Notes: generated by a model from the sequence alone, not told the origin. Positions 4,410 through 35,315 are shown, numbered from the stretch's first letter. The stretch: 38,495 nucleotides of DNA from Thermosynechococcaceae cyanobacterium (GCA_036703905.1 DATNQR010000718.1:1-38495); one strand, 5' to 3'. Translations and numbers: made by a program.

Positions 4410-5666
4410 TTACTCATAGCTCCGACCCCGCCAGCTTTTCGGCTTTTGGATGGAGGAAAGGAAAATTCGCAAAACAGCCAGGGGATCGGCGATCGGCGAA
4501 AGCCAGAAAGCCCAGGCAGCTTGAGCTTGAGAGCGATCATAAGAAGGGGCGATCGCAAAGTTCAGCCCGACTCGGATCAGCACCAACAGCAAATTGAGAG
4601 CAAAGGCAACCTGACCCGGAAGGCTGGCAGCTCCTTGCAGTACTGAGCCTTGCAGTACCGTGGGCAACAGCAGCAAAGTTAAGGGCAAGGGCAAGCCCTG
4701 AACAGCGAGCAGCAGCAGCCAATCTCCCCAAACCTGGGCAACAGAGGCCGCGTCTTTGAGGTCGAGCGATCGTCCCCACTCACGCCAGGTTTCCGCCATG
4801 CCGTCATACATTCGTACCTTCAGCACCTTTGCACCATCCAGAAAACCAACTTTCGCGCCCTGCGCGGCAATGTTGCGGGCTAGGGTGACATCATCACAGA
4901 ATGAACGCCGAGCGCTGCTGTAGCCGCCGACTGCTGCCAGGGTCGATCGCCGACAGAAGAAGCACTGCCCGTTCGCCATAACGCGATCGGCTGAGTTGGC
5001 AGTCTCGCCGGCTGGCCCGAAGCGATACACAAGGGTCATCAGCAAAGCAGGCTGAAGCCACAATTCCCCCGGATGCTTCAGGATAAACTGCGGTGACAGT
5101 GAAATCAGGTCGTAGCCTTCAGTAGTGGCAGTGGCGATCAGGCTAGAAACCAATCCAGGCTGCGGCTGTGTATCGGCATCAATGCCCAAAATCCACTCAC
5201 TATCCTCAACGCTACTCAAAAAACCATTGTGTAAAGCCCAGGGGCGACCTACCCAATCCGGCGGCAGAGGATCGTCGTTCATCAACCGAAAGCGAGGGTC
5301 GCTCTGTTGGGCGACTTTAACTAGGTCGGGTGTCCCATCCTGGGAGTGGCTGTCCACAACCAGAATTTCCCTCACCTCGTAGCTCTGGCGGCTGAGGCCA
5401 TGCAGGCAGGGAGAGAGACGATCGACCTCGTTTAGGGTTGGCACAACCACACTCACAGCGCCCAAGAATTCCGGCTGGGCAGACTGAGGTTGTAGAGGCG
5501 GATGACGACGCGGCCCCCGCAGGAGCCGGGAAAGCAAGATGGCACTAGCGGGAACTTGTCCCAACAGTAACCCTAGCAGGAGCGCATTTTTCAAAGTACT
5601 CCAGGCTGGAGCAGTGTCCAGCGCTGCTAGAAGCGGCCCCAGATGATTGAGTACGATCAATTTCAA
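4410..5666 (-). CDS. cruG: Family-2 glycosyltransferase, CruG-like (myxol 2'-O-glycosyltransferase candidate)
   Basis: GT2 core VSVVVPTLNE...ILVVDSHSQDGT...GIDADT, flanked by N- and C-terminal TM segments. It lies 39 nt downstream of a CruF-like gene, the cruF-cruG arrangement described in Synechococcus PCC 7002. Confidence 0.6.
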   Translation of the reverse strand: MKLIVLNHLGPLLAALDTAPAWSTLKNALLLGLLLGQVPASAILLSRLLRGPRRHPPLQPQSAQPEFLGAVSVVVPTLNEVDRLSPCLHGLSRQSYEVREILVVDSHSQDGTPDLVKVAQQSDPRFRLMNDDPLPPDWVGRPWALHNGFLSSVEDSEWILGIDADTQPQPGLVSSLIATATTEGYDLISLSPQFILKHPGELWLQPALLMTLVYRFGPAGETANSADRVMANGQCFFCRRSTLAAVGGYSSARRSFCDDVTLARNIAAQGAKVGFLDGAKVLKVRMYDGMAETWREWGRSLDLKDAASVAQVWGDWLLLLAVQGLPLPLTLLLLPTVLQGSVLQGAASLPGQVAFALNLLLVLIRVGLNFAIAPSYDRSQAQAAWAFWLSPIADPLAVLRIFLSSIQKPKSWRGRSYE

Positions 5667-5705
5667 TATCGGTGTAGAGGAGCGAAGCGAAACAGTGCAG
5701 TCAAG

Positions 5706-6635
5706 CTATTTAGGCAATACTGCCGTGGGAATGATAGAAACCTCTGTGGCTTGGTGCGCTTCTTCCAGAGTCGATCGCACTTCATCTACGCTGGGAGCGG
5801 CAATCCACCACAGGACGATCGCTGGAACTACGCCTAGAGCAATGCTGATGCTGGTGGGAATCCAGTAGCGTACATCCAGGGAGGTGACAGTAATGATTGC
5901 ACCGAAGGCAAAGTTGGTTAGGTAGATAATCAACGGAACCCAAAGCTGGGAGCGAGTTAGCTTGGTGTAAGTGTTGCGCCACAGCAGGGCCGCTACAGAC
6001 ATGAACACCGCCCCTGTACCCAGCCAACCGGTCAGGTTGCGGTAGGGCATTCCAAAAAATTCCCCCGCATCCTGAAATTCCCAAAAAGGGTAAGCAGTCT
6101 GGCTCATGGCGGGGTCTAGGACAAAATCCCAGGCGGTGAGCATGATGGCTCCGAGGACGATCGCGCCCCCCTGTTTCATCCAGCCATTCACGCCCTTTGC
6201 TTCTAGTCCTGCCCGTGCCAGCACATAGGTAGACAGTCCCAGATAAAACCAAGAGAGGGGAATGGTGAAGGGAACCAGCCCAGCAATCTTGTAGCCCAAG
6301 CCACTCAGGTAGCCGTAGTGACCAAAGGGAAATCCCGTGCTGGTTCCCAACAACTCACTCCCAGCAGACAAGATCACGGCGGGCAGCATAAAACCCAGCC
6401 AGTTTCGCAGTCCCAGAGTCCGGTAGGCATAGATGGCCATCACGATCGCGCCTAGAACAATGTAAACCACGCCACCGCCCGACATGCTCAGACCGAAAGC
6501 AGCTTGCCCGATCGGAGGCAGCGCGGCAATAAAAGATGGGTTTGGCAACACCAGCAGCAACCCTGCCAGCCCAAACACTAGAGATGAAACATGACCAACT
6601 AAACAGAAGCGCTCGACAGTAATCAACTGCTTCAT
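5706..6635 (-). CDS. cruF: Carotenoid biosynthesis membrane protein, CruF-like (carotenoid 1',2'-hydratase/hydroxylase family, DUF422)
   Basis: 309-aa polytopic membrane protein. Motifs GFPFGHYGY, TAWDFVLDPAMSQ and YPFWEF are recalled from the DUF422/CruF family. Adjacent to the GT2 gene. Confidence 0.6.
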   Translation of the reverse strand: MKQLITVERFCLVGHVSSLVFGLAGLLLVLPNPSFIAALPPIGQAAFGLSMSGGGVVYIVLGAIVMAIYAYRTLGLRNWLGFMLPAVILSAGSELLGTSTGFPFGHYGYLSGLGYKIAGLVPFTIPLSWFYLGLSTYVLARAGLEAKGVNGWMKQGGAIVLGAIMLTAWDFVLDPAMSQTAYPFWEFQDAGEFFGMPYRNLTGWLGTGAVFMSVAALLWRNTYTKLTRSQLWVPLIIYLTNFAFGAIITVTSLDVRYWIPTSISIALGVVPAIVLWWIAAPSVDEVRSTLEEAHQATEVSIIPTAVLPK

Positions 6636-6752
6636 GGGGACTCCTCAAAAATGGGCGCTGAAAAATGCCTGCATACAGTTTACAAACGTTAAGAAAAAAC
6701 CGTAAGCATTCCAGTAATTTTTGAAGGAGTCGAAGAGTCCAGGACTTGAGAC

Positions 6753-6781
6753 AAAAAATCGGGGCGCACAGTGTACGCCCC
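6753..6781 (-). terminator. Rho-independent terminator (minus strand)
   Basis: The minus-strand RNA reads GGGGCGUACACUGUGCGCCCC followed by GAUUUUUUG. GC-rich stem at 6761-6766/6776-6781, U-tract at 6753-6758. It lies 183 nt downstream of the purQ stop. Confidence 0.7.
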
Positions 6782-6963
6782 ACAGGTCTCACATCATCAC
6801 AAAGACACACCTTCAAAACTTCGCAGGTCAGAGGCCTTTAGGAAATTACTGTCAGTGTTCTTACTCAGAAGCTACCACGGAGCTGTAGGGAAAGCAAGAG
6901 CGAGGCAGGCGGTGGGAGGATGTATTCCCCTCTACTCCTCTACCTTATGAATCATCTCGCCGA

Positions 6964-7674
6964 TCACCTGGCCAGTGCCTCGACCCCTACTTTTGCCAAC
7001 AGCCCTTCAAAAAGTAGTCGCCCGTCTGTTTTGCCCAGAGCCGGATCGGCTGCTCGTTCTGGGTGCGGCATCATGCCCAGAACATTTCCTTGACGGTTAC
7101 AGATCCCGGCGATGTTTTGAAGTGAACCGTTGGGGTTTGCGGCCGCACTCACTTCACCCTGAGAAGTACAGTAGCGGAAGAGAATTTGCTGGTTGGCTTC
7201 GAGGCTCTCCAGGGTGTCGGCATCGGCGTAGTAGCTTCCTTCTCCATGGGCGATCGGCAAGGTAATTACGGAGTCCTGATATTTCTGTGTCCAGGGCAAA
7301 TCTGAGCGATCGATCTTCAGGAAAACTCGATCGCAGATGAAATGCATTTCCCGGTTGCGAACCAGCGCTCCTTGCAATAGGCCTGCTTCAGTCAGGATTT
7401 GGAAGCCATTACAAATGCCAAGAACGTATTTTCCCTGCTTGGCATGGTCGATCGTGGCTTGCAGTGCTGGGGAGAAACGGGCGATCGCGCCGCAGCGCAA
7501 ATAATCCCCGTAGCTAAAACCACCGGGAACCACCACCACGTCCACATCGGTTAAATCACGCTCTGTGTGCCAGATCATTCGAGTGGGCTGTTGGAGTAGC
7601 CCTTGAGTTACCCAAGCCACATCGCGATCGCAGTTCGATCCAGGAAATACGATAATTCCAAATCTGACAGCCAT
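6964..7674 (-). CDS. purQ: Phosphoribosylformylglycinamidine synthase, glutaminase subunit
   Basis: MAVRFGIIVFPGSNCDRD, catalytic-Cys motif LGICNGFQIL, and MMPHPERA. Start taken at the ATG at 7674. The 44-codon upstream extension in the track has no PurQ counterpart. Confidence 0.9.
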   Translation of the reverse strand: MAVRFGIIVFPGSNCDRDVAWVTQGLLQQPTRMIWHTERDLTDVDVVVVPGGFSYGDYLRCGAIARFSPALQATIDHAKQGKYVLGICNGFQILTEAGLLQGALVRNREMHFICDRVFLKIDRSDLPWTQKYQDSVITLPIAHGEGSYYADADTLESLEANQQILFRYCTSQGEVSAAANPNGSLQNIAGICNRQGNVLGMMPHPERAADPALGKTDGRLLFEGLLAKVGVEALAR

Positions 7675-7978
7675 CTTCGCCCTCGTTTCTCTGCTTATTG
7701 CCATGATCGCACAGGATTTGTTCAACTGACTTTGAGGCCTGCCAGCTCTGAACCTGCCGTGTATAGCCATAGCCTCATAGGTTTGACGGATGTGTGGTGG
7801 TTCCATTCCTGCACACCCGTCAAACCTAATGTCCTAAGTTGTCTGTTATGTCTACTCAGACGCTTCAACGTGATCCAAATCACATCCAAGCCCCTTAAAG
7901 ATCACACTTAGGAATGATTTCAGTCAGGCGATCGGTATAGCTAATCACTGATACTGAGAAAGTCCCAGCCTGCATAGG

Positions 7979-8239
7979 ATGCTGTATATGATCGATGATC
8001 TGGTTCAGTCTGCTTTTCAAACGGGTTGTTTGAGTGTGGAGTCGGAAGGCCTGATTCGCCAAATTTTAGCAACGAGCAGTTGCAAACCCTCTGATGTAGA
8101 GGCACTGCGGCATCTTTGTGAGGCTGTGGAAACTGGAAAAATTCGGCGAGAAGCTCACCAGAAAGTTCAAATGCCTTCACTTGCCACTATCCGAGACGGC
8201 CTGGGCCAGCCGGTTCGGGAGAGAGCTTCAGCTTATTAG
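7979..8239 (+). CDS. Small hypothetical protein (86 aa)
   Basis: ORF only, no family recognised. I prefer it to the overlapping antisense 79-aa ORF because its sequence looks more protein-like (amphipathic helices, no Cys/Pro/Ser-rich runs). Confidence 0.35.
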   Translation: MLYMIDDLVQSAFQTGCLSVESEGLIRQILATSSCKPSDVEALRHLCEAVETGKIRREAHQKVQMPSLATIRDGLGQPVRERASAY

Positions 8240-8241
8240 GC

Positions 8242-9168
8242 TTAGCCTTTGCCGGTCAGTCCTTTAGACCGCAGAAACTCTCGCACTACTTCTTTCACGT
8301 CGCGCAGTTCTCCCTCCACCAGGTAATTCAACCGTTGCATTTCATTGGCAGAGATCTTTCCTTGTAGTTGCTCGATCGCACTCCGCAGTTTGGGATATTT
8401 CATCAGGGTTTGGCTACGCACGATCGGCACTGCTTCATAGGGAGGAAAATACCCCTTGTCGTCTTTGAGGATAGTTAGACCAAGACGAGCGATCTGACCA
8501 TCGGTTGAATTCCCTGCAATCAAATCAACTTGTTTTTGTAGCAACGCTCGGTAGATTAGCCCCAGATCCATGATCTGGGGCGTTTTGGCAAATTGTAGAT
8601 TGTAGGCCTTAGCAAGACCGGGATAGCCGTCTTCTCGCTCCAGAAACTCATACCCAAACCCTGCCCGCCACTGTGGAGCGTACTGGGCTACCTGAGACAA
8701 AGTTTGCAGGTTGTAGCGCTGGGCATCTTCACCTCGCACGATGATGGCGAAGGTGTTCTCGAACCCTAGCGGCGGCAGCACTGCCAGATTAAATCGTTGG
8801 GCGTAGGCTTCCTGGGTGCGCTGGTAGACCTGCTGAGGATCGGGAATTGGCGGCTGCTTTAGCAGCGTGGTGTAGGCGGTTCCGGTGTACTCCACGTAGG
8901 CATCGATTTTGCCGCTCATGATTGCCTGATGCGCCACGAAAGAGCCACCCAACCGGGGACGACGATCGACCTTGAGTCCCACACTCTCAATCTGCTGCGC
9001 TAATAATTCACCCAAAATGTCTTGTTCAGTGAAGTCTTTGGAGGCCACGATGATGTCTCCACCGCTGCTACTGCTGGAGCTTGGAGCGCAGGCAACGGTG
9101 GACAGCAGAATCACGATCGCCAAAAAAAACAGCGCCACGTAATTCTTTCGCTTTTCTTGCTTTCGCAT
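8242..9168 (-). CDS. Glycine betaine/choline-type ABC transporter substrate-binding lipoprotein (OpuAC-like fold)
   Basis: Signal peptide with lipobox LLSTVAC followed by a Ser-rich linker. The body resembles the OpuBC/OpuCC osmoprotectant-binding family (IIVASKDFTEQDILGEL, YVEYTGTAY, GYEFLEREDGYPGL). Confidence 0.8.
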   Translation of the reverse strand: MRKQEKRKNYVALFFLAIVILLSTVACAPSSSSSSGGDIIVASKDFTEQDILGELLAQQIESVGLKVDRRPRLGGSFVAHQAIMSGKIDAYVEYTGTAYTTLLKQPPIPDPQQVYQRTQEAYAQRFNLAVLPPLGFENTFAIIVRGEDAQRYNLQTLSQVAQYAPQWRAGFGYEFLEREDGYPGLAKAYNLQFAKTPQIMDLGLIYRALLQKQVDLIAGNSTDGQIARLGLTILKDDKGYFPPYEAVPIVRSQTLMKYPKLRSAIEQLQGKISANEMQRLNYLVEGELRDVKEVVREFLRSKGLTGKG

Positions 9169-9189
9169 TTTTATACTCCAGTAGACAAT

Positions 9190-9228
9190 TGATGAGCATC
9201 AAATTGGTCATCAACTTGATGCTCATCA
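9190..9228. repeat. Perfect 13-bp inverted repeat (intercistronic hairpin)
   Basis: TGATGAGCATCAA (9190-9202) and TTGATGCTCATCA (9216-9228) flank a 13-nt loop. It sits between the permease stop and the binding-protein start. Confidence 0.9.
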
Positions 9229-9326
9229 GGACTTATGCGGAAGAGATATTCCAAATCTTATAGGGAGGGGACTTCTGAGATTTTCCCTTTTTAGGGAGAG
9301 CTAGGGATAAGTCCTAATCAATTGCG

Positions 9327-9977
9327 CTAGCGAGTTAATCGTCGCTCTAGCCAGCCGATACCGGAGTCAGCGATCAGGGCGATCGCGGCAGCGGGAATTG
9401 CTCCAGCCAGAATGAGCTGGTTGTTGACAACGGCAATACCGCGAAAAATGAACACACCTAAACCACCCGCGCCAACGGCCGCCGCGATTGTTGCAATACC
9501 GATCGCAATCACAGTTGCGACCCGCACTCCTGCCAGGATAACCCCCAGCGCTAACGGGATTTCTACCTGGGTGAGCAGTTGCCAGTCAGTCATGCCCATG
9601 CCGCGTCCTGCCTCGCGCACTGCTGGATCGACGTTAGTGATGCCTGTATAGGTGTTGCGGATGATAGGCAGAAAGGAGTAGAGCGTTAGGGCAACGATCG
9701 CGGGGACTGCACCAATTCCCACTACCGGAATCAACAGCCCAAATAGGGCCAGGCTGGGAATCGTTTGCAGTACGTTAGCCAGAGCCAGGACGGGCCGCCG
9801 CAACGCTTTCTGGCGGGTGATCAGAATGCCGAGGGGAAGGCTGACCAGAATTGCGATCGTGATGGCTATGCCGACTAACAGCAAGTGCTCACCCGTCCGT
9901 TGCAGCACTTCGGCTCCATAGCGCAGGAAAATTGCTGAGATCCCAGCATAGAAATCAGAAAAAATATTACTCATCAA
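9327..9977 (-). CDS. ABC transporter permease, osmoprotectant (OpuBB/OpuCB-like) type
   Basis: 216 aa with about 5-6 TM helices. EAA-loop-like REAGRGMGMTDWQLLTQVEIPLALG. Directly upstream of the betaine-type binding protein. Confidence 0.8.
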   Translation of the reverse strand: MMSNIFSDFYAGISAIFLRYGAEVLQRTGEHLLLVGIAITIAILVSLPLGILITRQKALRRPVLALANVLQTIPSLALFGLLIPVVGIGAVPAIVALTLYSFLPIIRNTYTGITNVDPAVREAGRGMGMTDWQLLTQVEIPLALGVILAGVRVATVIAIGIATIAAAVGAGGLGVFIFRGIAVVNNQLILAGAIPAAAIALIADSGIGWLERRLTR

Positions 9978-12938: not shown

Positions 12939-13177
12939 TGATGCTTTGCTGATCAGCTTTATGAGCCGGATCTGGGTCTGGTCTGGGGGTTTACAGAGTT
13001 TCATAAACTAGAGTTCCACAGAGCGGAAAGTTAGCGCTGCGTGACACGAGCAGTTCAGCTACCTTTACGGAGATAGAAGCTGTAATACAATAAGGTCTTC
13101 ACAATTTTTAGCCTGATCGTTCCCTCAACACCCGTTGCGGTAGCGCAATCGCGTCTACTCCTCCCCCTGTGACTCTT

Positions 13178-15286
13178 ATGACTTCCTCGATTCGCTTCCT
13201 GATGTGTGCTCCTGACCACTACGACGTGGACTATGTGATTAACCCCTGGATGGAGGGAAATATTCACAAGTCTTCCCGCGATCGGGCAGTGGAGCAGTGG
13301 CACAAGCTGTTTCACGTGCTGAAAGACCACGCCTTAGTAGATCTGGTCAAACCACAGATTGGCGTACCAGATATGGTGTTTACAGCCAATGCTGGACTGG
13401 TGCTGGGTCAAAACGTTGTCCTTAGCCGTTTCTTCCACAAAGAGCGTCAGGGCGAGGAGCCGTTTTTCAGGCAGTGGTTCGAGGAGCAGGGCTGCACGGT
13501 GTATGAACTGCCGAAGGATCTGCCGTTTGAAGGGGCAGGAGATGCCCTGTTCGATCGTGAGGGTCGATGGCTATGGGCAGGCTATGGATTCCGATCGGAG
13601 TTAGATTCTCACCCGTTGATCGCCAAGTGGCTGGATGTGGAAGTGGTGTCGCTGCGGCTGATGGATGAGCGCTTCTACCACCTCGACACCTGCTTCTGTC
13701 CCCTGACGGATGGCTATTTGCTCTACTATCCGCCAGCCTTCGATTCCTATTCCAACCGCGTGATTGAGATGCGGGTTCCAGAGAGCAAGCGAATCGCGAT
13801 CGTCGAAAGTGATGCAGTGAACTTTGCCTGCAATGCGGTGAATATCGATCGCAATGTGGTGGTGAACAAAGCCAGCGATGAACTAAAGCAGCGCCTCGGC
13901 TCCGCAGGCTTCCAGGTGATCGAAACGCCGTTGACAGAATTTCTCAAAGCAGGTGGCGCGGCCAAATGTCTGACCTTGCGGATGACAGAACCCGTGCGAG
14001 AGGAAGTCCATGCCAGTGCCTCTGTGGAGAGTCGGGTAATGCGACTGGAAGGACACCTGCTGGATGCTGGACTGATCAACCAGGCCCTAGATCTGATTGT
14101 AGAAGGCGGCGGCAGCTTTCAGGTGCTGAGCTTCAACCTGGGTGAGCAGCGCCAGAGTACTTCTGCCGCCGAGGTAAAAGTGACGGCTCCTTCCCATGAG
14201 GTGATGGAAGTTTTGATATCGCAGTTGATTGACTTGGGCGCTTTGCCGCCGCCCCAGGAAGTTTGCGATACCAGTTTGGAAACTGTGGTGCAGGCTGGGG
14301 TGTCGCCGGATGATTTCTACGTCACCACAATCTATCCCACCGAAGTGCGGGTGCAAGATCAGTGGGTACGGGTGCAAGGACAGCGCATGGATGCGGCGAT
14401 CGTCGTTGACCCCGACAAGCTCACGGCCCGGTGCTGTCTGCTGCGGGATTTGCAAGTGGGCGATCGAGTGGTCGTTAGCGTTGAGGGCATTCGCACCATC
14501 CGCAAAACCGAGTCCCGCGAACAGCGCAACACTCAGGAGTTCAGCTTTATGGGAGCCGGAGTCTCCAGTGAGCGCCGAGTGGAACTGGTGGTGGAGCAGA
14601 TCGCCTGGGAATTGCGTCAGATCCGCGATCAGGGCGGTAAAGTTGTCGTTTCGGCTGGCCCAGTTGTGATTCACACGGGCGGCGGCGAACATTTAGCTAA
14701 GCTGGTACGCGATGGCTACGTGCAATCGCTTTTGGGCGGCAACGCGATCGCAGTTCACGACATGGAACAGTCGATGATGGGCACGTCCCTCGGTGTGGAC
14801 ATGAAGCGTGGCGTTTCGGTACGCGGTGGTCATCGCCACCATCTGAAGGTGATCAACATCATTCGGCGCTACGGCAGCATTGCCAAAGCTGTTGAACAGG
14901 GCATCATCACGAGCGGCATTTTCTACGAGTGCGTTCAGCACAATGTCCCCTTTAGACTGGCAGGCTCGATCCGCGATGATGGGCCGCTGCCGGATACCGA
15001 AATGGATCTGCTCAAGGCTCAAGCCGCCTACGCTGAACAAATCCAGGGCGCAGACATGATCTTGATGCTGTCCTCTATGCTGCACTCGATCGGCGTGGGC
15101 AACATGACTCCCGCCGGGGTGAAGATGGTCTGCGTGGACATTAACCCTGCCGTGGTGACGAAGTTGAGCGATCGCGGCTCCGTGGAATCGATCGGCGTAG
15201 TGACAGACGTGGGCCTGTTCCTCAGCCTGCTGTTGCAGCAACTCAGCAAGCTCACCAGTCCTTACCAGTTCGTGCGATCGGTATAG
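13178..15286 (+). CDS. argZ: Bifunctional arginine dihydrolase / ornithine-utilising enzyme (ArgZ/AgrE family)
   Basis: The N-terminal ~270 aa have a guanidino-group-modifying fold (LMCAPDHYDVDYVINPWMEGN, MVFTANAG, FYHLDTCF, GGAAKCLTL with Cys at codon 264, nt 13967-13969). The C-terminal ~420 aa are LOR/SDH- and ornithine-cyclodeaminase-like. Length and N-terminus closely parallel Synechocystis Sll1336. Confidence 0.85.
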   Translation: MTSSIRFLMCAPDHYDVDYVINPWMEGNIHKSSRDRAVEQWHKLFHVLKDHALVDLVKPQIGVPDMVFTANAGLVLGQNVVLSRFFHKERQGEEPFFRQWFEEQGCTVYELPKDLPFEGAGDALFDREGRWLWAGYGFRSELDSHPLIAKWLDVEVVSLRLMDERFYHLDTCFCPLTDGYLLYYPPAFDSYSNRVIEMRVPESKRIAIVESDAVNFACNAVNIDRNVVVNKASDELKQRLGSAGFQVIETPLTEFLKAGGAAKCLTLRMTEPVREEVHASASVESRVMRLEGHLLDAGLINQALDLIVEGGGSFQVLSFNLGEQRQSTSAAEVKVTAPSHEVMEVLISQLIDLGALPPPQEVCDTSLETVVQAGVSPDDFYVTTIYPTEVRVQDQWVRVQGQRMDAAIVVDPDKLTARCCLLRDLQVGDRVVVSVEGIRTIRKTESREQRNTQEFSFMGAGVSSERRVELVVEQIAWELRQIRDQGGKVVVSAGPVVIHTGGGEHLAKLVRDGYVQSLLGGNAIAVHDMEQSMMGTSLGVDMKRGVSVRGGHRHHLKVINIIRRYGSIAKAVEQGIITSGIFYECVQHNVPFRLAGSIRDDGPLPDTEMDLLKAQAAYAEQIQGADMILMLSSMLHSIGVGNMTPAGVKMVCVDINPAVVTKLSDRGSVESIGVVTDVGLFLSLLLQQLSKLTSPYQFVRSV

Positions 15287-15292
15287 CTTCGG

Positions 15293-15340
15293 TCAAATCT
15301 AGAGCTTCCCAAGCCCCTGCCTGGGAAGCTCTAGATTTGA
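15293..15340 (+). terminator. 19-bp perfect hairpin, likely argZ terminator
   Basis: TCAAATCTAGAGCTTCCCA (15293-15311), a 10-nt loop, then TGGGAAGCTCTAGATTTGA (15322-15340). A T-rich stretch gcgttgtgattgtttta follows. It starts 7 nt after the argZ stop. Confidence 0.6.
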
Positions 15341-15592
15341 GCGTTGTGATTGTTTTATGTGATCTCGCGCTGTTGGGCTAAAGGAAGCTGCCGCAGTGAG
15401 CTTGGCTGCGGTCGCGATTGCTCAAACCACAGGTCTAATTACGGTTGAGATTCAGAATTTGTAAGCTGAGCCGTAGCCTATGTCCTAAGCTGTCAGTCTG
15501 TAGCTATATTTGTAGGCTAATCGTCCTACAATCTCTGGGGTTAGTCTGCGGGCCGGATAGTTGCTTTAACCTGTTCCGGCGGAGGTCTTCTG

Positions 15593-30118: not shown

Positions 30119-30907
30119 ATGTCAGTCTCCTTTCTAGCGGTAGCGCCGCAGTTAGCTCAAGCGCCCCCCAAATTCAGTAAAACTCAGCCCGCCTCTACCC
30201 CCGCTAAACCAGCCGAGAGTGGTTTCAACCTGTGGATGGGCGCAAGCGGAGTGCTGTTCTTACTGCTGGTGGGGCTGGGGGTCTACTCCAAGCTGAGTGC
30301 AGACAAACTGGCAAAGCAAGTCAAATTTGAAACCTTCAAGAACCGGGAGCTTCAGAAAAAGCTGAAATATGCCGTGGAAACGATCGGCAAAATGGAGCGC
30401 AACCCCGACCTGATCCACTCCCGCGAATTCAACCTTGACTACTTGAGAATGCGGATGGATGAAGAAGTTTTCCACTTCGCCATCTTGAACCAGATCAAAA
30501 TCAAAGTGAAGGAGAAAATCAGCGTAGCCCTACGGCCGGGTCAGGCTAGTCAGGGCGAACTGGGCATCGCCAGCAGTGGGCGACACATTGATGAGATTTT
30601 TGACGTGGAATATGATCCAGGAGACTTGCCTAAAGGCAACCGCCGCGTTCTGTTCCGCATTCAGATCAAAATCTTTAAGCTCCCCACCCAGCCCACATCC
30701 GTTACCATCAACCAGATCATTGACTGCATTGAGACGTTCCTGCGCCCTAACAGCGACCACGACACCTGGCAACCCACCATCCAAGGCCGCATCGCTACCA
30801 TGCACTGGGATCAGAAGGCCAAACCCACACCGCTGCTAGTGCTGGAGCAAACCCAGGAAGGCAGCAACGTTACCTTCAGAACCACCCGCATGGCCCAGAA
30901 TAGCTAA
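30119..30907 (+). CDS. Hypothetical membrane-anchored protein (262 aa)
   Basis: ORF with ATG start. One TM helix (FNLWMGASGVLFLLLVGLGVY), then a Lys-rich predicted coiled segment and a globular C-terminal part. No family recognised. Confidence 0.5.
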   Translation: MSVSFLAVAPQLAQAPPKFSKTQPASTPAKPAESGFNLWMGASGVLFLLLVGLGVYSKLSADKLAKQVKFETFKNRELQKKLKYAVETIGKMERNPDLIHSREFNLDYLRMRMDEEVFHFAILNQIKIKVKEKISVALRPGQASQGELGIASSGRHIDEIFDVEYDPGDLPKGNRRVLFRIQIKIFKLPTQPTSVTINQIIDCIETFLRPNSDHDTWQPTIQGRIATMHWDQKAKPTPLLVLEQTQEGSNVTFRTTRMAQNS

Positions 30908-31017: not shown

Positions 31018-32235
31018 TTGTTCAAATCTTCTGGAAAATGGATTGCAGTTCTAGCGATCGCTGCTCTAAGCGTGTCGGGAGTCGGCATCTTCTTAGCGCT
31101 ACGGCCCTCAACTTCTGCTCAGAATGCTACCCCGCCCACCGATCGCGGCGCAGACAGCGCCAGTCCTACGGGCGCGATCGCAGCTTTGGGACGGCTAGAG
31201 CCAGGGGGCGAGACCTACTGCGTCTATCCGCCTTCCTCCTCTGGTCTGAGCGGCACAATCAAACTGTGGCGGGTACGCGAGGGCGATCGGGTTAAGCAGG
31301 GCGACGTGATTGCAGTCATGGATACCTACGAGCGCTTGGAAGCGGCTGTGGTTCAGGCGCAGGCCCAGGTGGGCGAAGCCGAAAGCCGTGTGGCTCAGGC
31401 TCGGCAGGGATCAAAGCCCGCAGAAGTCAGCGCCCAGTCTGCCCAGATTGCCGCCAGAGCCGAGCAAGCCAACGCCAAGCAAGCAGAAGTGGTGCGGCGG
31501 CGAGCAGAACTAAAGAATGCGCAGGCGCAACTGAAGAACGCGCAGGTAGAACTGAAACGGGCTGAAGACTTGTTCAAAGTGGGGGCTGTCTCTGAGTCGC
31601 AACGGGATTCTCGTCAGACTGCCTTTGAATCTGCCAAAGCAGCTTCGGAAACTGCCGAAGCTGCTTTGGAGCAAACTGGCCGAGAAGTACAGCAGGCGGT
31701 GGCTGAGTTTCAGCAGGCGGGGCAAGTGAGGGAAGGACTGGTTCAAGTGCGCGATGTGGATGTGCAACAGGCGATGGCCCAGCGCGATGTGGCAGTAGCC
31801 AACCTCCGCAAGGCGAGCGTGGATCTAGACACGGCGGCGGTGCGCGCCCCGATCGCGGGTCAGGTTCTCAAAATTCACGCCAAAGAAGCAGAGCAGGTGA
31901 GTAGCGGCGTGGGGGGCAGCAACTCCAACGAATGCAATGGCGTAGCTGAACTGGGGGAAACCGATCGAATGTATGCCGTAGCTGAAGTTTACGAAACTGA
32001 TGTTGTCAGGGTTCGTTCCGGTCAGAAAGCCACAATTTCCAGCACTGCCTTTCCTAACAAAATTACGGGCACAGTGGAACGGGTGGCTCTGAGAGTCGGC
32101 AAGAAAGATGTATTGAACACTGATCCCGCTGCTGATACGGATGCCAGAGTGGTTGAGGTGAGAATTCGTCTGGACGACAGCAAGTTAGTTGCAGGCTTGA
32201 CAAATTTGCAGGTCAAAGTTGCGATCGCGCCCTAA
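31018..32235 (+). CDS. devB: ABC exporter membrane fusion protein, DevB family (HlyD-like)
   Basis: N-terminal TM anchor, ALGRLEPGGE, RVREGDRVKQGDVIAVMD (lipoyl-like hairpin), a long Ala/Gln coiled coil, and VRAPIAGQVLKIHAKEAE. The only in-frame start is TTG at 31018. Confidence 0.8.
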   Translation: MFKSSGKWIAVLAIAALSVSGVGIFLALRPSTSAQNATPPTDRGADSASPTGAIAALGRLEPGGETYCVYPPSSSGLSGTIKLWRVREGDRVKQGDVIAVMDTYERLEAAVVQAQAQVGEAESRVAQARQGSKPAEVSAQSAQIAARAEQANAKQAEVVRRRAELKNAQAQLKNAQVELKRAEDLFKVGAVSESQRDSRQTAFESAKAASETAEAALEQTGREVQQAVAEFQQAGQVREGLVQVRDVDVQQAMAQRDVAVANLRKASVDLDTAAVRAPIAGQVLKIHAKEAEQVSSGVGGSNSNECNGVAELGETDRMYAVAEVYETDVVRVRSGQKATISSTAFPNKITGTVERVALRVGKKDVLNTDPAADTDARVVEVRIRLDDSKLVAGLTNLQVKVAIAP

Positions 32236-32425
32236 ACCAAGTTTTGAATAAATAGCTGGGTGCAATAAAACTGTAGATAACTAAGGGGTGAAGGGGCGAA
32301 GTCTCCAGCTCCCTTTTACATTTAGTTAAGCCTACAGACTGAGTGAGTTTGAGCTGGGCTCACAGAAACAAGTTACGACCCTCGCTTATCCAATTCTCTT
32401 CAACTCAAAACTCAAACCTTCCCCC

Positions 32426-33586
32426 ATGTTCGCCATTCCTCTAGCCTGGTTACAGCTAAAACGTGAAAAGGTTCGTCTGCTGATTGCTCTGGCGGGCATT
32501 GGTTTTGCCGTTATCTTAATGTTCATTCAACTGGGCTTTCGAGACGCTTTGTTTGATAGCGCAATACGGATGCACCAGAACTTGCAGGGCGATGTTTTTT
32601 TGGTCAGTCCTCAATCCACTGCCCTGATCGCCATGAGGAGCTTTTCCCAGCGCCGCCTCTATCAAGCACTGGGATACGAAGGGGTAGAATCTGTCAGTGC
32701 GGTCTATCTGGACTTTGGGCTGTGGAAAAACCCCGATAATCGGCGCACTCGTGGAATTTTGGTGATTGGGTTTGACCCGAAAGAACCTATCTTTTCTCTG
32801 CCTGGAGTGGTGCAGGGCTTGGATAAGATTCAGCTACCGGACACTGTGTTGTTTGATGAAGATTCCAGGGAAGAGTTTGGGCCGGTTGGCAAGAAATTTG
32901 AAGCGGGAGAGCTTGTTCAAACAGAGGTAGCAGGACGACGAATCACGGTGGCTGGATTGTTCAAGATGGGGGCTTCTTTCGGAGCAGACGGCAACATTGT
33001 CACCAGTGATTTGAACTTTTTCAGAATTTTCGATCGTCGCAAGGCTGGACTCATTGACGTAGGGCTAATTAGGCTCAAGCCAGGAACCGATGTGCAGTCC
33101 GTGATGAATTTGCTGCGGAAGGACATTCAGGAACCCAACAGTGATGTCAAAGTGATGTCTAAACAGGAATTCATTGAGTTTGAGCAAAACTACTGGAAAA
33201 GCAGCACGGCGATCGGGTTTATCTTCACTCTGGGGGCAGCGATCGGGTTTGTGGTGGGCACGGTGATCGTGTACCAAATTCTCTACACTGATGTCACCGA
33301 TCACCTAGCAGAATACGCCACCCTCAAAGCGATGGGCTACCGCAATAGCTATTTGCTCTCAGTTGTATTCCAGGAAGCATTAATTCTCTCAATCATGGGG
33401 TACGTTCCCGGCTTTCTGCTAGCGCTCGGTCTCTACAATCTGACTCTGAAGGCCACCTCGCTGCCTATCGCCATGACCACAGATCGGGCAATTACCGTAT
33501 TGTGCCTGGCGATCGTCATGTGTACGATTTCTGGTGCGATCGCAGTTCGCAAAGTCCAGGATGCTGACCCCGCCGATATTTTCTAG
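32426..33586 (+). CDS. devC: ABC exporter permease, DevC family (FtsX/MacB-type)
   Basis: MFAIPLAWLQLKREKVRLLIALAGIGFAVILMFIQLGF is the DevC N-terminus. A periplasmic domain is followed by the C-terminal FtsX-like 3-TM module. Confidence 0.85.
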   Translation: MFAIPLAWLQLKREKVRLLIALAGIGFAVILMFIQLGFRDALFDSAIRMHQNLQGDVFLVSPQSTALIAMRSFSQRRLYQALGYEGVESVSAVYLDFGLWKNPDNRRTRGILVIGFDPKEPIFSLPGVVQGLDKIQLPDTVLFDEDSREEFGPVGKKFEAGELVQTEVAGRRITVAGLFKMGASFGADGNIVTSDLNFFRIFDRRKAGLIDVGLIRLKPGTDVQSVMNLLRKDIQEPNSDVKVMSKQEFIEFEQNYWKSSTAIGFIFTLGAAIGFVVGTVIVYQILYTDVTDHLAEYATLKAMGYRNSYLLSVVFQEALILSIMGYVPGFLLALGLYNLTLKATSLPIAMTTDRAITVLCLAIVMCTISGAIAVRKVQDADPADIF

Positions 33587-33638
33587 GTGCTTTCAGAACT
33601 GTGCTCCATTGGTTTTCCCTTCATATAGGTTCTGGTTT

Positions 33639-34565
33639 ATGTCACTTCCATCAAAATCGCTGCAAGCTCTACTTCTGAGCGTGTGCAGCTTTGCGCTCGT
33701 TCTGGTCGTTGCTGCCGGCTTTAACCCAGCGGCGATCGTCGCCCAAGAATCCCCGGCTCCAGCAAACAATGCTTCCCCTGTGCCTACCCAGAGTGCTCAA
33801 CCCAGTCCGGCTACCGCCAGTCCAACTGCACCTGATGCCCCAGGAGACATCGTAGAGGTTTTCATGAATGTGCTGAGCTTCGACCCCGTGAAGGGCGAGG
33901 TGGACGCTCGGTTAGAGTTTATTCCTAGAGGCAGTTATCGGCTGAACGATACCGATTTTCCCGCTAAAAACCTGCTGTTGACTGTGAATAACGTTGAGAA
34001 GCAAGGATCGCAGCTCACCTTCAAGAAAGGCAAGCCGATGGATGCGTCCAGCCTTAAGTTCATCACCAGTGAGGGCGATGCCGACAGCTATCCCTTCGAT
34101 CGCCACACGGCTGAGGTTCTCTTTTACCTGGAAACTACCGAAGGAGCAGAAGTGCCGCTGACCCTCAATTTCTTCGGCAAGCTTCCAGGCTACGATATTG
34201 AATACGCCACCGAGAAAGACAACTCAGCTGATCTGATTAACATTGATGTCAACGTCTCTCGATCTGGCACAACCAAGTTCTTCTCGATCGTCGTAATGAC
34301 GACGCTATGGGTGCTGGCGCTGTTGTCTTTGATGGTGGCGCTCAAAGTGGCTCAGTCTGGCAAACTTCCAGAGATTGGGATGTTTGGCTGGATGGCGGCT
34401 CTGCTATTTGCCTCTCCTGCCGTCCGCAACACCCAGCCCAATGTGCCGCCCGTGGGAACCGTGAGCGATAGTTTTTCCCTGCTGCTGACAGAAACGATCG
34501 TCGTCGTTGCCCTCGTGATTCTAGGAACTTGCTGGTTGCGCCGCTTCAATGCTCCAGCCAAGTAG
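33639..34565 (+). CDS. Membrane protein of unknown function (DUF4436-like from memory), inserted between devC and devA
   Basis: Signal/anchor MSLPSKSLQALLLSVCSFALVLVVAAG, a P/A/S-rich linker, a beta-rich ~170-aa ectodomain containing SYPFDRHTAEV, then three TM helices. Same strand, with 52-nt and 57-nt gaps to devC and devA. Start at ATG 33639 (TTG at 33609 is possible). Confidence 0.6.
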   Translation: MSLPSKSLQALLLSVCSFALVLVVAAGFNPAAIVAQESPAPANNASPVPTQSAQPSPATASPTAPDAPGDIVEVFMNVLSFDPVKGEVDARLEFIPRGSYRLNDTDFPAKNLLLTVNNVEKQGSQLTFKKGKPMDASSLKFITSEGDADSYPFDRHTAEVLFYLETTEGAEVPLTLNFFGKLPGYDIEYATEKDNSADLINIDVNVSRSGTTKFFSIVVMTTLWVLALLSLMVALKVAQSGKLPEIGMFGWMAALLFASPAVRNTQPNVPPVGTVSDSFSLLLTETIVVVALVILGTCWLRRFNAPAK

Positions 34566-34622
34566 CGTTATGGGGAGAATTAAAACATTGCTCCCCACCT
34601 GCCTATCTCCTCGTTACCTCCT

Positions 34623-35315
34623 ATGCAAGAACCCGTCATCTCCATCCAGCAGGTCAACCACTACTTCGGCACGGGTAGGCTTCGCAAGCAAATCCTGTAT
34701 GAAGCCACAACAGATATTCAGCCCGGAGAAGTGGTGATCATGACGGGGCCGTCCGGCTCTGGCAAAACGACATTGCTGACTTTGATTGGGGCCCTGCGAT
34801 CGACCCAGGAAGGCAGCATGAAGGTGCTGGGCGAAGAACTCAGCAACGCCCCCACAAACCTGCTGGTGAAGGTGCGGCGCAGTATTGGCTACATCTTCCA
34901 GGCTCACAATTTGCTAAAGTCCTTGACGGCTCGGCAGAACGTGCAAATGGCGCTGGAACTGCATGACTATTCTGACCAGGAACGTCGATCGCAAGCAGAA
35001 GCGATGCTGGAAGCTGTCGGTTTGAAAGACTGGGTTAATTACTATCCCCAGGAGCTATCTGGTGGACAGAAGCAGCGTGTGGCGATCGCCCGTGCTTTGG
35101 TTGGCCGTCCCCGCATCGTCCTGGCCGATGAACCCACTGCCGCCCTAGACAGAAAATCTGGTCGAGATGTAGTAGACATCATGCAGTCCCTAGCCAAGCA
35201 GCAAGGCTCGGCGATTCTACTCGTTACCCACGACAACCGAATTTTGGACGTAGCCGATCGATTGATTCACATGGAGGATGGACGGTTGGCTTCGCTGGAT
35301 CGATCGCCCGTCTAG
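34623..35315 (+). CDS. devA: ABC exporter ATP-binding subunit, DevA family
   Basis: Walker [10 protein letters not shown], signature [15 protein letters not shown], Walker [13 protein letters not shown] and H-loop LVTHD. The N-terminal [12 protein letters not shown] is typical of DevA. Confidence 0.85.

Follow-up and report, generated by a model that had tools for sequence, protein, structure and literature searches.

A lineage-specific DUF4436 gene between devC and devA of a cyanobacterial DevBCA-family exporter locus

In the canonical Anabaena devBCA cluster and in several of its paralogues, the exporter genes are contiguous (PMC8277102). In a contig from a Thermosynechococcaceae cyanobacterium (DATNQR010000718.1), a gene for a 308-amino-acid (aa) membrane protein of the DUF4436 family lies between devC and devA. 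Does this fourth gene point to a four-component machine, as an initial annotation of the contig had proposed, or is it a local addition to a DevBCA-family operon? We analyzed the whole 38,495-nt stretch, hereafter the window, with positions counted from its first letter. The locus spans 31018-35315, and its four open reading frames (ORFs) all lie on the + strand:

31018-32235, + strand: devB, 405 aa, TTG start; membrane-fusion (periplasmic adaptor) protein of a DevBCA-family exporter; TIGR02971
32426-33586, + strand: devC, 386 aa; MacB/FtsX-type permease; TIGR01185 and Pfam FtsX
33639-34565, + strand: inserted gene (DUF4436), 308 aa; membrane protein with a predicted architecture like that seen in pLGICs (pentameric ligand-gated ion channels); PF14494
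34623-35315, + strand: devA, 230 aa; ATP-binding cassette (ABC) ATPase; TIGR02982 and Pfam ABC_tran

DUF4436 lies between devC and devA in one narrow lineage

The devB, devC and devA identifications of the initial annotation were right, as all three proteins score above their NCBIfam cutoffs: DevB matches TIGR02971 at 278 bits (cutoff 129), together with Pfam HlyD_3, Biotin_lipoyl_2 and HlyD_D23; DevC matches TIGR01185 at 585 bits (cutoff 290) and Pfam FtsX; and DevA matches TIGR02982 at 364 bits (cutoff 296) and Pfam ABC_tran. The layout that it described, with a 308-codon ORF on the same strand separated from devC by 52 nt and from devA by 57 nt, is also what we find. The gene order is devB, devC, DUF4436, devA on one strand, so that the DUF4436 gene interrupts the three-gene contiguity. 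Judged from its sequence, the locus is a DevBCA-family (MacB-like) ABC exporter of an uncultured cyanobacterium, which we liken to the family and not to any one Anabaena paralogue. The HIP1 octamer (GCGATCGC) occurs 38 times in the window against ~1 expected, which marks the window as cyanobacterial.

The arrangement is limited to the window, two metagenome contigs whose DUF4436 proteins are 75% identical to that of the window (L082 and L081), and a further contig from the window's own organism (L169). L082 carries devB-devC-DUF4436-devA, with 79, 88, 75 and 87% identity to the window, respectively. L081 carries devC-DUF4436, after which the contig ends, and has no devB upstream. L169 is an independent contig with the same arrangement as the window, and the organism is present in JGI metagenome 3300018916. 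DevC of the window is 86-88% identical to its counterparts in L081 and L082 and 78% identical to that of L083, a syntenic outgroup that has the same 262-aa gene, devB and devC, with neither DUF4436 nor devA. No species representative in GTDB r232 has a DUF4436 protein more than 48% identical to that of the window, although the search patterns do match the window's own sequence; the lineage comprising the window, L081 and L082 seems to be absent from reference genomes and known only from metagenomes. The insertion of DUF4436 between devC and devA is thus confined to one narrow lineage.

In L081 (5935-8000), a DprA-like fragment on the opposite strand occupies the place where devB would be expected, followed by a 359-nt gap before devC. 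The operon of L081 is therefore broken at the devB/devC junction, with the devC-DUF4436 adjacency persisting.

The inserted ORF is a real gene under purifying selection. It matches PF14494 (DUF4436) at 141.9 bits (gathering score 23.2, E = 3.1e-41), and the match spans 234 of the 255 positions of the model. Its ratio of nonsynonymous to synonymous substitution rates (dN/dS) against the two closest orthologues is 0.08-0.13, and the corresponding ratio of the dev genes is 0.05-0.06; dS exceeds 1. These values, with the Pfam E value and a predicted structure of high confidence (mean predicted local distance difference test score (pLDDT) of 87), rule out a pseudogene or spurious ORF, and recurrence on the independent contigs L169, L082 and L081 rules out mis-assembly; we consider the probability that the locus is an artefact of either kind negligible. 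A recent horizontal acquisition of the gene is likewise ruled out by GC content, GC content at third codon positions (GC3) and codon usage, all typical of the window. We found no relevant repeat or mobile-element signature around it.

A gene-neighborhood comparison, the check proposed in the initial annotation, returned no linkage of DUF4436 to DevBCA genes outside this clade, an outcome that, by that annotation's own standard, largely refutes its proposal. Drawing on one genome per GTDB species (r232), we collected 80 DUF4436 loci with 8-kb flanks, corresponding to ~17 independent contexts. Most are from Microcoleus and Tychonema, and the others are from further cyanobacteria, Acidobacteria and Actinobacteria. 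DevB, DevC and DevA, searched for by tblastn with the window proteins, lie within 8 kb of DUF4436 in 0/80 loci. The sole ABC ATPase near DUF4436 among them (L066) is encoded ~4 kb away on the opposite strand, has 29% identity and is unrelated. The next-nearest homologues of the window's DUF4436 protein (45-48% identity: P0005, P0007 and P0008) are likewise unlinked to DevBCA. Starting from the exporter, we took the 80 nearest DevC loci from metagenomes (53-78% identity); in no case does DUF4436 lie within 6 kb. The neighbors of DUF4436 differ by lineage and have a housekeeping look (primase, RNase R, Obg and methyltransferases), as read from the sequences without a family-library scan.

We also sought a conserved partner gene for DUF4436 elsewhere and rejected it, because a fixed context occurs only within Microcoleus/Tychonema and represents trivial synteny of close relatives. 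In that group (L002-L062, at ~4850-9900 in locus coordinates), a gene for a 484-aa membrane protein (BT1/MFS-like) always lies upstream of DUF4436 on the same strand. A gene for a ~498-aa carotenoid-cleavage-oxygenase-like protein is also upstream on the same strand, and a GDSL-like gene lies downstream on the opposite strand. These three neighbors were labeled from their sequences, again with no library scan.

The contiguous devBCA arrangement that the initial annotation took as its paradigm proved to be common, but not universal. Among 65 DevC loci with enough downstream DNA to judge, devA follows on the same strand in 49, with a gap of less than 400 nt in 47 of these and a median gap near 40 nt; the remaining 16, including L083, have no devA downstream. 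In Anabaena, the hgdBC cluster also lacks an ATPase gene (PMC6161253). The hgdB-hgdC pair thus resembles these 16 loci, in that genes of the DevB/DevC type stand apart from an ATPase gene, whereas the window retains devA one gene further downstream. Where devA does follow, the junction can hold other genes: a MAPEG protein and a 4HBT thioesterase in L145 (7300-8202), and an SfLAP (sulfolipid-addressing) membrane protein in L155 (7150-7827). These inserts share with the window the junction, the strand and the short gaps, but they belong to lipid-metabolism or lipid-addressing families unrelated to DUF4436. Because 16 of 65 loci lack devA, other genes occupy the junction in L145 and L155, and hgdBC has no ATPase gene, we conclude that gene content specific to a lineage recurs at the devC/devA junction, a place where lineages park different genes.

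The closest DevC proteins outside the clade (72-78% identity) are those of L083 (7162-8664) and L086 (7159-10300), where devB-devC is found with no devA within 6 kb. In L083, devC is followed by a convergent acyltransferase gene. In L086, the next ORF (923 aa) lies on the opposite strand and appears, from its sequence and not from a family-library scan, to encode an adenylating-enzyme/carrier-protein-like product.

The locus invites comparison with DevBCA-HgdD of Anabaena PCC 7120. In both cases, a DevB adaptor, a DevC permease and a DevA ATPase are encoded on the same strand and in the same relative order; the outer-membrane factor HgdD of Anabaena lies outside the exporter locus (PMC8277102), and its counterpart here is presumably encoded elsewhere too. 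No TolC/OEP protein or polyketide synthase is present among the window ORFs of at least 400 aa, which agrees with the initial statement that the window contains neither a TolC/HgdD-type factor nor a polyketide synthase context. The window differs from the Anabaena system in having the DUF4436 gene at the devC/devA junction and in lacking a heterocyst-glycolipid or polyketide synthase context. By analogy with the Anabaena machinery (PMC8277102, PMC6161253), the export machine would consist of DevA2/DevC2 together with DevB adaptors and a TolC-like factor encoded elsewhere, and the same analogy suggests that its substrate is probably lipidic.

Probable co-transcription and the place of DUF4436 in the exporter locus

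Three spacers separate the four genes:

32236-32425, + strand: devB-devC spacer, 190 nt; long hairpin at 32270-32335, fold z = -2.0
33587-33638, + strand: devC-DUF4436 spacer, 52 nt; fold not significant, z = -0.9
34566-34622, + strand: DUF4436-devA spacer, 57 nt, pyrimidine-rich; weak hairpin at 34571-34596

A consensus scan, which captures cyanobacterial promoters poorly, found no terminator-like or sigma-70-like sites in any of the three gaps. The hairpin in the DUF4436-devA spacer (GGGGAG..CTCCCC, 6-9 bp) has no U-run and folds no better than shuffled sequences (z = -1.0), and the initial annotation's claim that neither gap around the insert contains a terminator-like hairpin therefore holds. 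Because these gaps are short and free of terminators, devC, DUF4436 and devA are probably co-transcribed; the argument already made to this effect from the shared strand, the short gaps and the absent terminator is plausible.

We rejected the idea that the gaps on either side of the insert hold a conserved regulatory element, since spacer length and sequence vary among the window, L082 and L081 and no consensus promoter or terminator is present. The devC-DUF4436 spacer exceeds 120 nt in both L082 and L081, and the DUF4436-devA spacer is ~110 nt in L082; neither is conserved with its counterpart in the window. The devB-devC spacer varies as well: L082 has 40 nt and L083 has 94 nt, and at 190 nt the spacer of the window is ~150 nt longer than in relatives. 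The extra ~150 nt fold as the long hairpin (32270-32335), which has no second copy within the window, and this segment may be a short element that was inserted, or else a structure involved in processing or attenuation.

We consider it reasonably probable that the locus records a lineage-specific insertion of DUF4436 into a DevBCA-family operon, probably co-transcribed with its neighbors, and that DUF4436 is not a general exporter subunit. The gene would have been inserted between devC and devA in one lineage and then transcribed with both, and we favor a passenger or a loosely associated function over a clade-specific accessory. An unlikely alternative is that DUF4436 is a clade-specific fourth component, that is, a true partner of the DevCA-DevB exporter that might serve as a periplasm-facing sensor or regulator, or as an accessory subunit that gates the exporter, targets it or supplies its substrate, with stoichiometry set through co-transcription. 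The shared strand and the terminator-free gaps of 52 and 57 nt speak for such a partner, as do the purifying selection on the insert, the accessory-looking, lipid-related genes found at devC/devA in other lineages, and the adjacency to devC, which the window, L082 and L081 all keep even though dS exceeds 1 and the flanks have been rearranged. However, the two surveys described above found no linkage at any other DUF4436 or DevC locus, the family, with its more than 2,000 clusters (50% identity), mostly stands alone, the spacers differ in length, and the arrangement occurs in only three lineages, so that shared ancestry is enough to explain it. A general four-component machine, as first proposed, is not supported, given that linkage is lacking elsewhere and that unrelated genes occupy the same junction in other lineages.

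A different possibility is that the insertion brought or created a promoter, so that DUF4436, devA or both are transcribed apart from devBC and the genes are mere neighbors. A devA gene is dispensable as a neighbor (absent from 16/65 loci and from hgdBC; PMC6161253), the devC-DUF4436 spacers of more than 120 nt in L082 and L081 leave room for a promoter, the 190-nt devB-devC spacer of the window contains a structured element, and in L081, which has no devB upstream, devC needs a promoter of its own. In the window, by contrast, the spacers on either side of DUF4436 are only 52 and 57 nt long and contain no promoter-like consensus and no terminator, and the hairpin between DUF4436 and devA has no U-tract; we regard a broken operon as quite unlikely.

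Three points weigh against our preferred reading of a lineage-specific insertion. The devC-DUF4436 adjacency has outlasted saturated dS (>1), a complete turnover of the flanking genes (three different contexts) and the loss of devB in L081, a persistence that selection for holding the two genes side by side would also predict. The inserts in L145 and L155 are all lipid-related, and genes at this junction may thus more often be functional accessories than passengers. Co-transcription, finally, is inferred from gaps scanned with consensus sequences that recover cyanobacterial promoters poorly. On balance, we read the split operon as a lineage-specific insertion and not as evidence for a new four-component architecture, a mostly sobering outcome for ABC-exporter biology.

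Predicted DUF4436 architecture and likeness to ligand-gated channels

DUF4436 is a large uncharacterised family, with 2,210 clusters (50% identity) recovered at E up to 0.001 in an exhaustive HMMER search. In the searchable literature, DUF4436 has only a single incidental mention and PF14494 none, and there is no description of the family as pLGIC-like. We modeled the window protein with AlphaFold2, obtaining a mean pLDDT of 73 with a 13-sequence alignment and of 87 with a 133-sequence alignment (predicted template-modeling score 0.78). Residue conservation figures refer to the 133 DUF4436 sequences. The predicted features are as follows:

33651-33719, + strand: N-terminal hydrophobic helix, residues 5-27 (AlphaFold2 helix); signal-anchor or signal peptide
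33720-33833, + strand: disordered Pro/Ala/Ser-rich linker, residues 28-65; pLDDT mostly 47-63, below 50 at residues 35-40 and 42-46
33852-34262, + strand: periplasmic beta-sandwich, residues 72-208 (~140 aa); AlphaFold2 strands, pLDDT above 90
34089-34100, + strand: YPFD motif, residues 151-154, in the beta6-beta7 loop; the pLGIC 'Pro-loop' signature
34260-34262, + strand: pre-M1 Arg208, final residue of the last strand, directly before the helix at residues 210-240; 99% conserved
34266-34544, + strand: three transmembrane helices (AlphaFold2), M1 (residues 210-240), M2 (246-263) and M3 (275-302)

The prediction shows a hydrophobic helix, a linker, a beta-sandwich with a Pro-loop, a pre-M1 Arg and three transmembrane helices with a Pro-rich M2-M3 loop. 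The initial description of the product as a polytopic membrane protein is thus correct as to the membrane but not as to a classical polytopic fold, since a single N-terminal helix, the linker and the beta-sandwich precede three C-terminal transmembrane helices. The N-terminal hydrophobic segment is present in 130 of 133 family members, and the linker varies in length across the family alignment. The YPFD motif lies between the strands at residues 137-145 and 155-166 of the model and is strongly conserved (Y151 97%, P152 100%, F153 80% and D154 98%). In the M2-M3 loop, RNxQPxxPPxGTxxD (263-277), R263, P270, G273 and D277 are 100% conserved and P267 is 98% conserved.

To place this architecture, we compared the two AlphaFold2 models with the PDB using Foldseek. 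The top 50 matches are all pLGICs (GLIC, nAChR, GlyR and GABA-A), with E values of ~1e-8 to 1e-7, a probability of 1.00 and ~290-300 aligned columns, although global template-modeling (TM) scores are only 0.28-0.43. Matches at E up to 0.001 number 668 and 227 for the two models. Sequence comparison points the same way: a DUF4436 profile searched against all PDB sequences finds a pLGIC, the octopus chemotactile receptor (E = 7e-4), in an alignment that stays in register from YPFD through the pre-M1 Arg and into M1. A profile built from the deeper alignment gives E = 2e-3 and brings no gain over the shallow alignment. We then aligned the 133 DUF4436 sequences by hhalign to a profile of 37 natural prokaryotic pLGICs, gathered with a GLIC query that is 99% identical to the Gloeobacter proton-gated channel. 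The alignment (P = 4.4e-4) runs colinearly from beta1 to M3 across 229 columns and pairs M1, M2, the M2-M3 loop and M3 with their prokaryotic pLGIC counterparts, placing the M2-M3 loop opposite the LPR/LPK loop. YPFD is in register with the Pro-loop of GLIC as well as with that of the octopus receptor.

Across the pLGIC superfamily, the [F/Y]PxD motif is conserved at 100% for its Pro and 93% for its Asp, the pre-M1 Arg at 94% and the M2-M3 loop Pro at 88% (Jaiteh et al., PMC4795631, Table 1). DUF4436 carries these three signatures, with [F/Y]PxD in the beta6-beta7 loop, the Arg before M1 and a Pro in the M2-M3 loop; prokaryotic pLGICs such as GLIC and ELIC conserve them too, and in both groups an extracytoplasmic beta-sandwich leads straight into the transmembrane helices.

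Several observations nevertheless weigh against homology. DUF4436 has no M4: three helices follow the beta-sandwich, and the fourth hydrophobic helix is N-terminal, where it is joined by a disordered linker that prokaryotic pLGICs do not have. Its extracellular domain of ~140 aa is shorter than the ~190 aa of prokaryotic pLGICs, and the TM scores stay below 0.45. M1 (210-240) contains no Pro and hence no proline kink, and a Gly aligns at the site of the beta9 Trp. Pfam Neur_chan_LBD and Neur_chan_memb are unmatched even at E up to 10 among 13 members searched. The hhalign probability is 34%, and its score of 37 compares with 21 for reversed controls and 29-37 for block-shuffled ones. The Pro-loop block by itself accounts for most of the signal, hence the high scores of the block-shuffles, and the evidence from sequence alone is therefore weak.

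The pLGIC-like nature of DUF4436 thus stands on structure prediction and a motif-centered sequence signal. With the models as a guide, a shared architecture between DUF4436 and pLGICs is very likely, and we judge it probable that the two are true homologues, with DUF4436 not a canonical member of the superfamily. DUF4436 would most likely form its own oligomeric membrane receptor or channel-like protein. If the homology is true, DUF4436 would be a minimal, M4-less relative of a superfamily about whose origin and roles in prokaryotes little is understood, and the conserved operon context of the clade described here would offer one concrete functional lead. A pLGIC-like DUF4436 family may in that sense matter more than the operon variant itself. 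A bolder and very unlikely proposal is that DUF4436 constitutes an unrecognized M4-less pLGIC branch (>2,000 clusters), one member of which was recruited as a periplasm-sensing, ligand-gated partner of a MacB-type exporter; such a link between a channel-type receptor and an ABC efflux pump would be one not described before.

A Synechococcus-like metagenome-assembled genome (L066) encodes tandem DUF4436 paralogues (6883-7656 and 8001-8783) with 38-40% identity to the window protein. Such a pair would fit the formation of hetero-oligomers, if the family is pLGIC-like.

Flanking genes and other features of the window

Downstream of the exporter locus, rpsB and tsf start 330 nt past devA. On the 5' side, devB is flanked by rarD, on the opposite strand, and by the 262-aa gene of no known family (30119-30907, + strand), which lies 110 nt upstream of devB and encodes a protein with a single transmembrane segment and no Pfam or NCBIfam match. 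Homologues of this protein (64-78% identity) adjoin the same devBCA subfamily in seven other loci and in two arrangements: L083, L086 and L087 have them upstream in the same orientation, and L098, L101, L102 and L109 have them downstream of devA in the opposite orientation. The 262-aa gene is therefore a more recurrent neighbor of these exporters than DUF4436.

Two further features lie far from the exporter genes. A tandem array of 14-nt units (CAAAATATCTCAGC, ~5 copies) occupies 2246-2315, in an intergenic or ORF-start region. At 15290-15343, directly past an ArgZ-like gene (13169-15286), a 25-nt inverted repeat with 92% complementarity and a 4-nt loop is likely a terminator or a repeat element.

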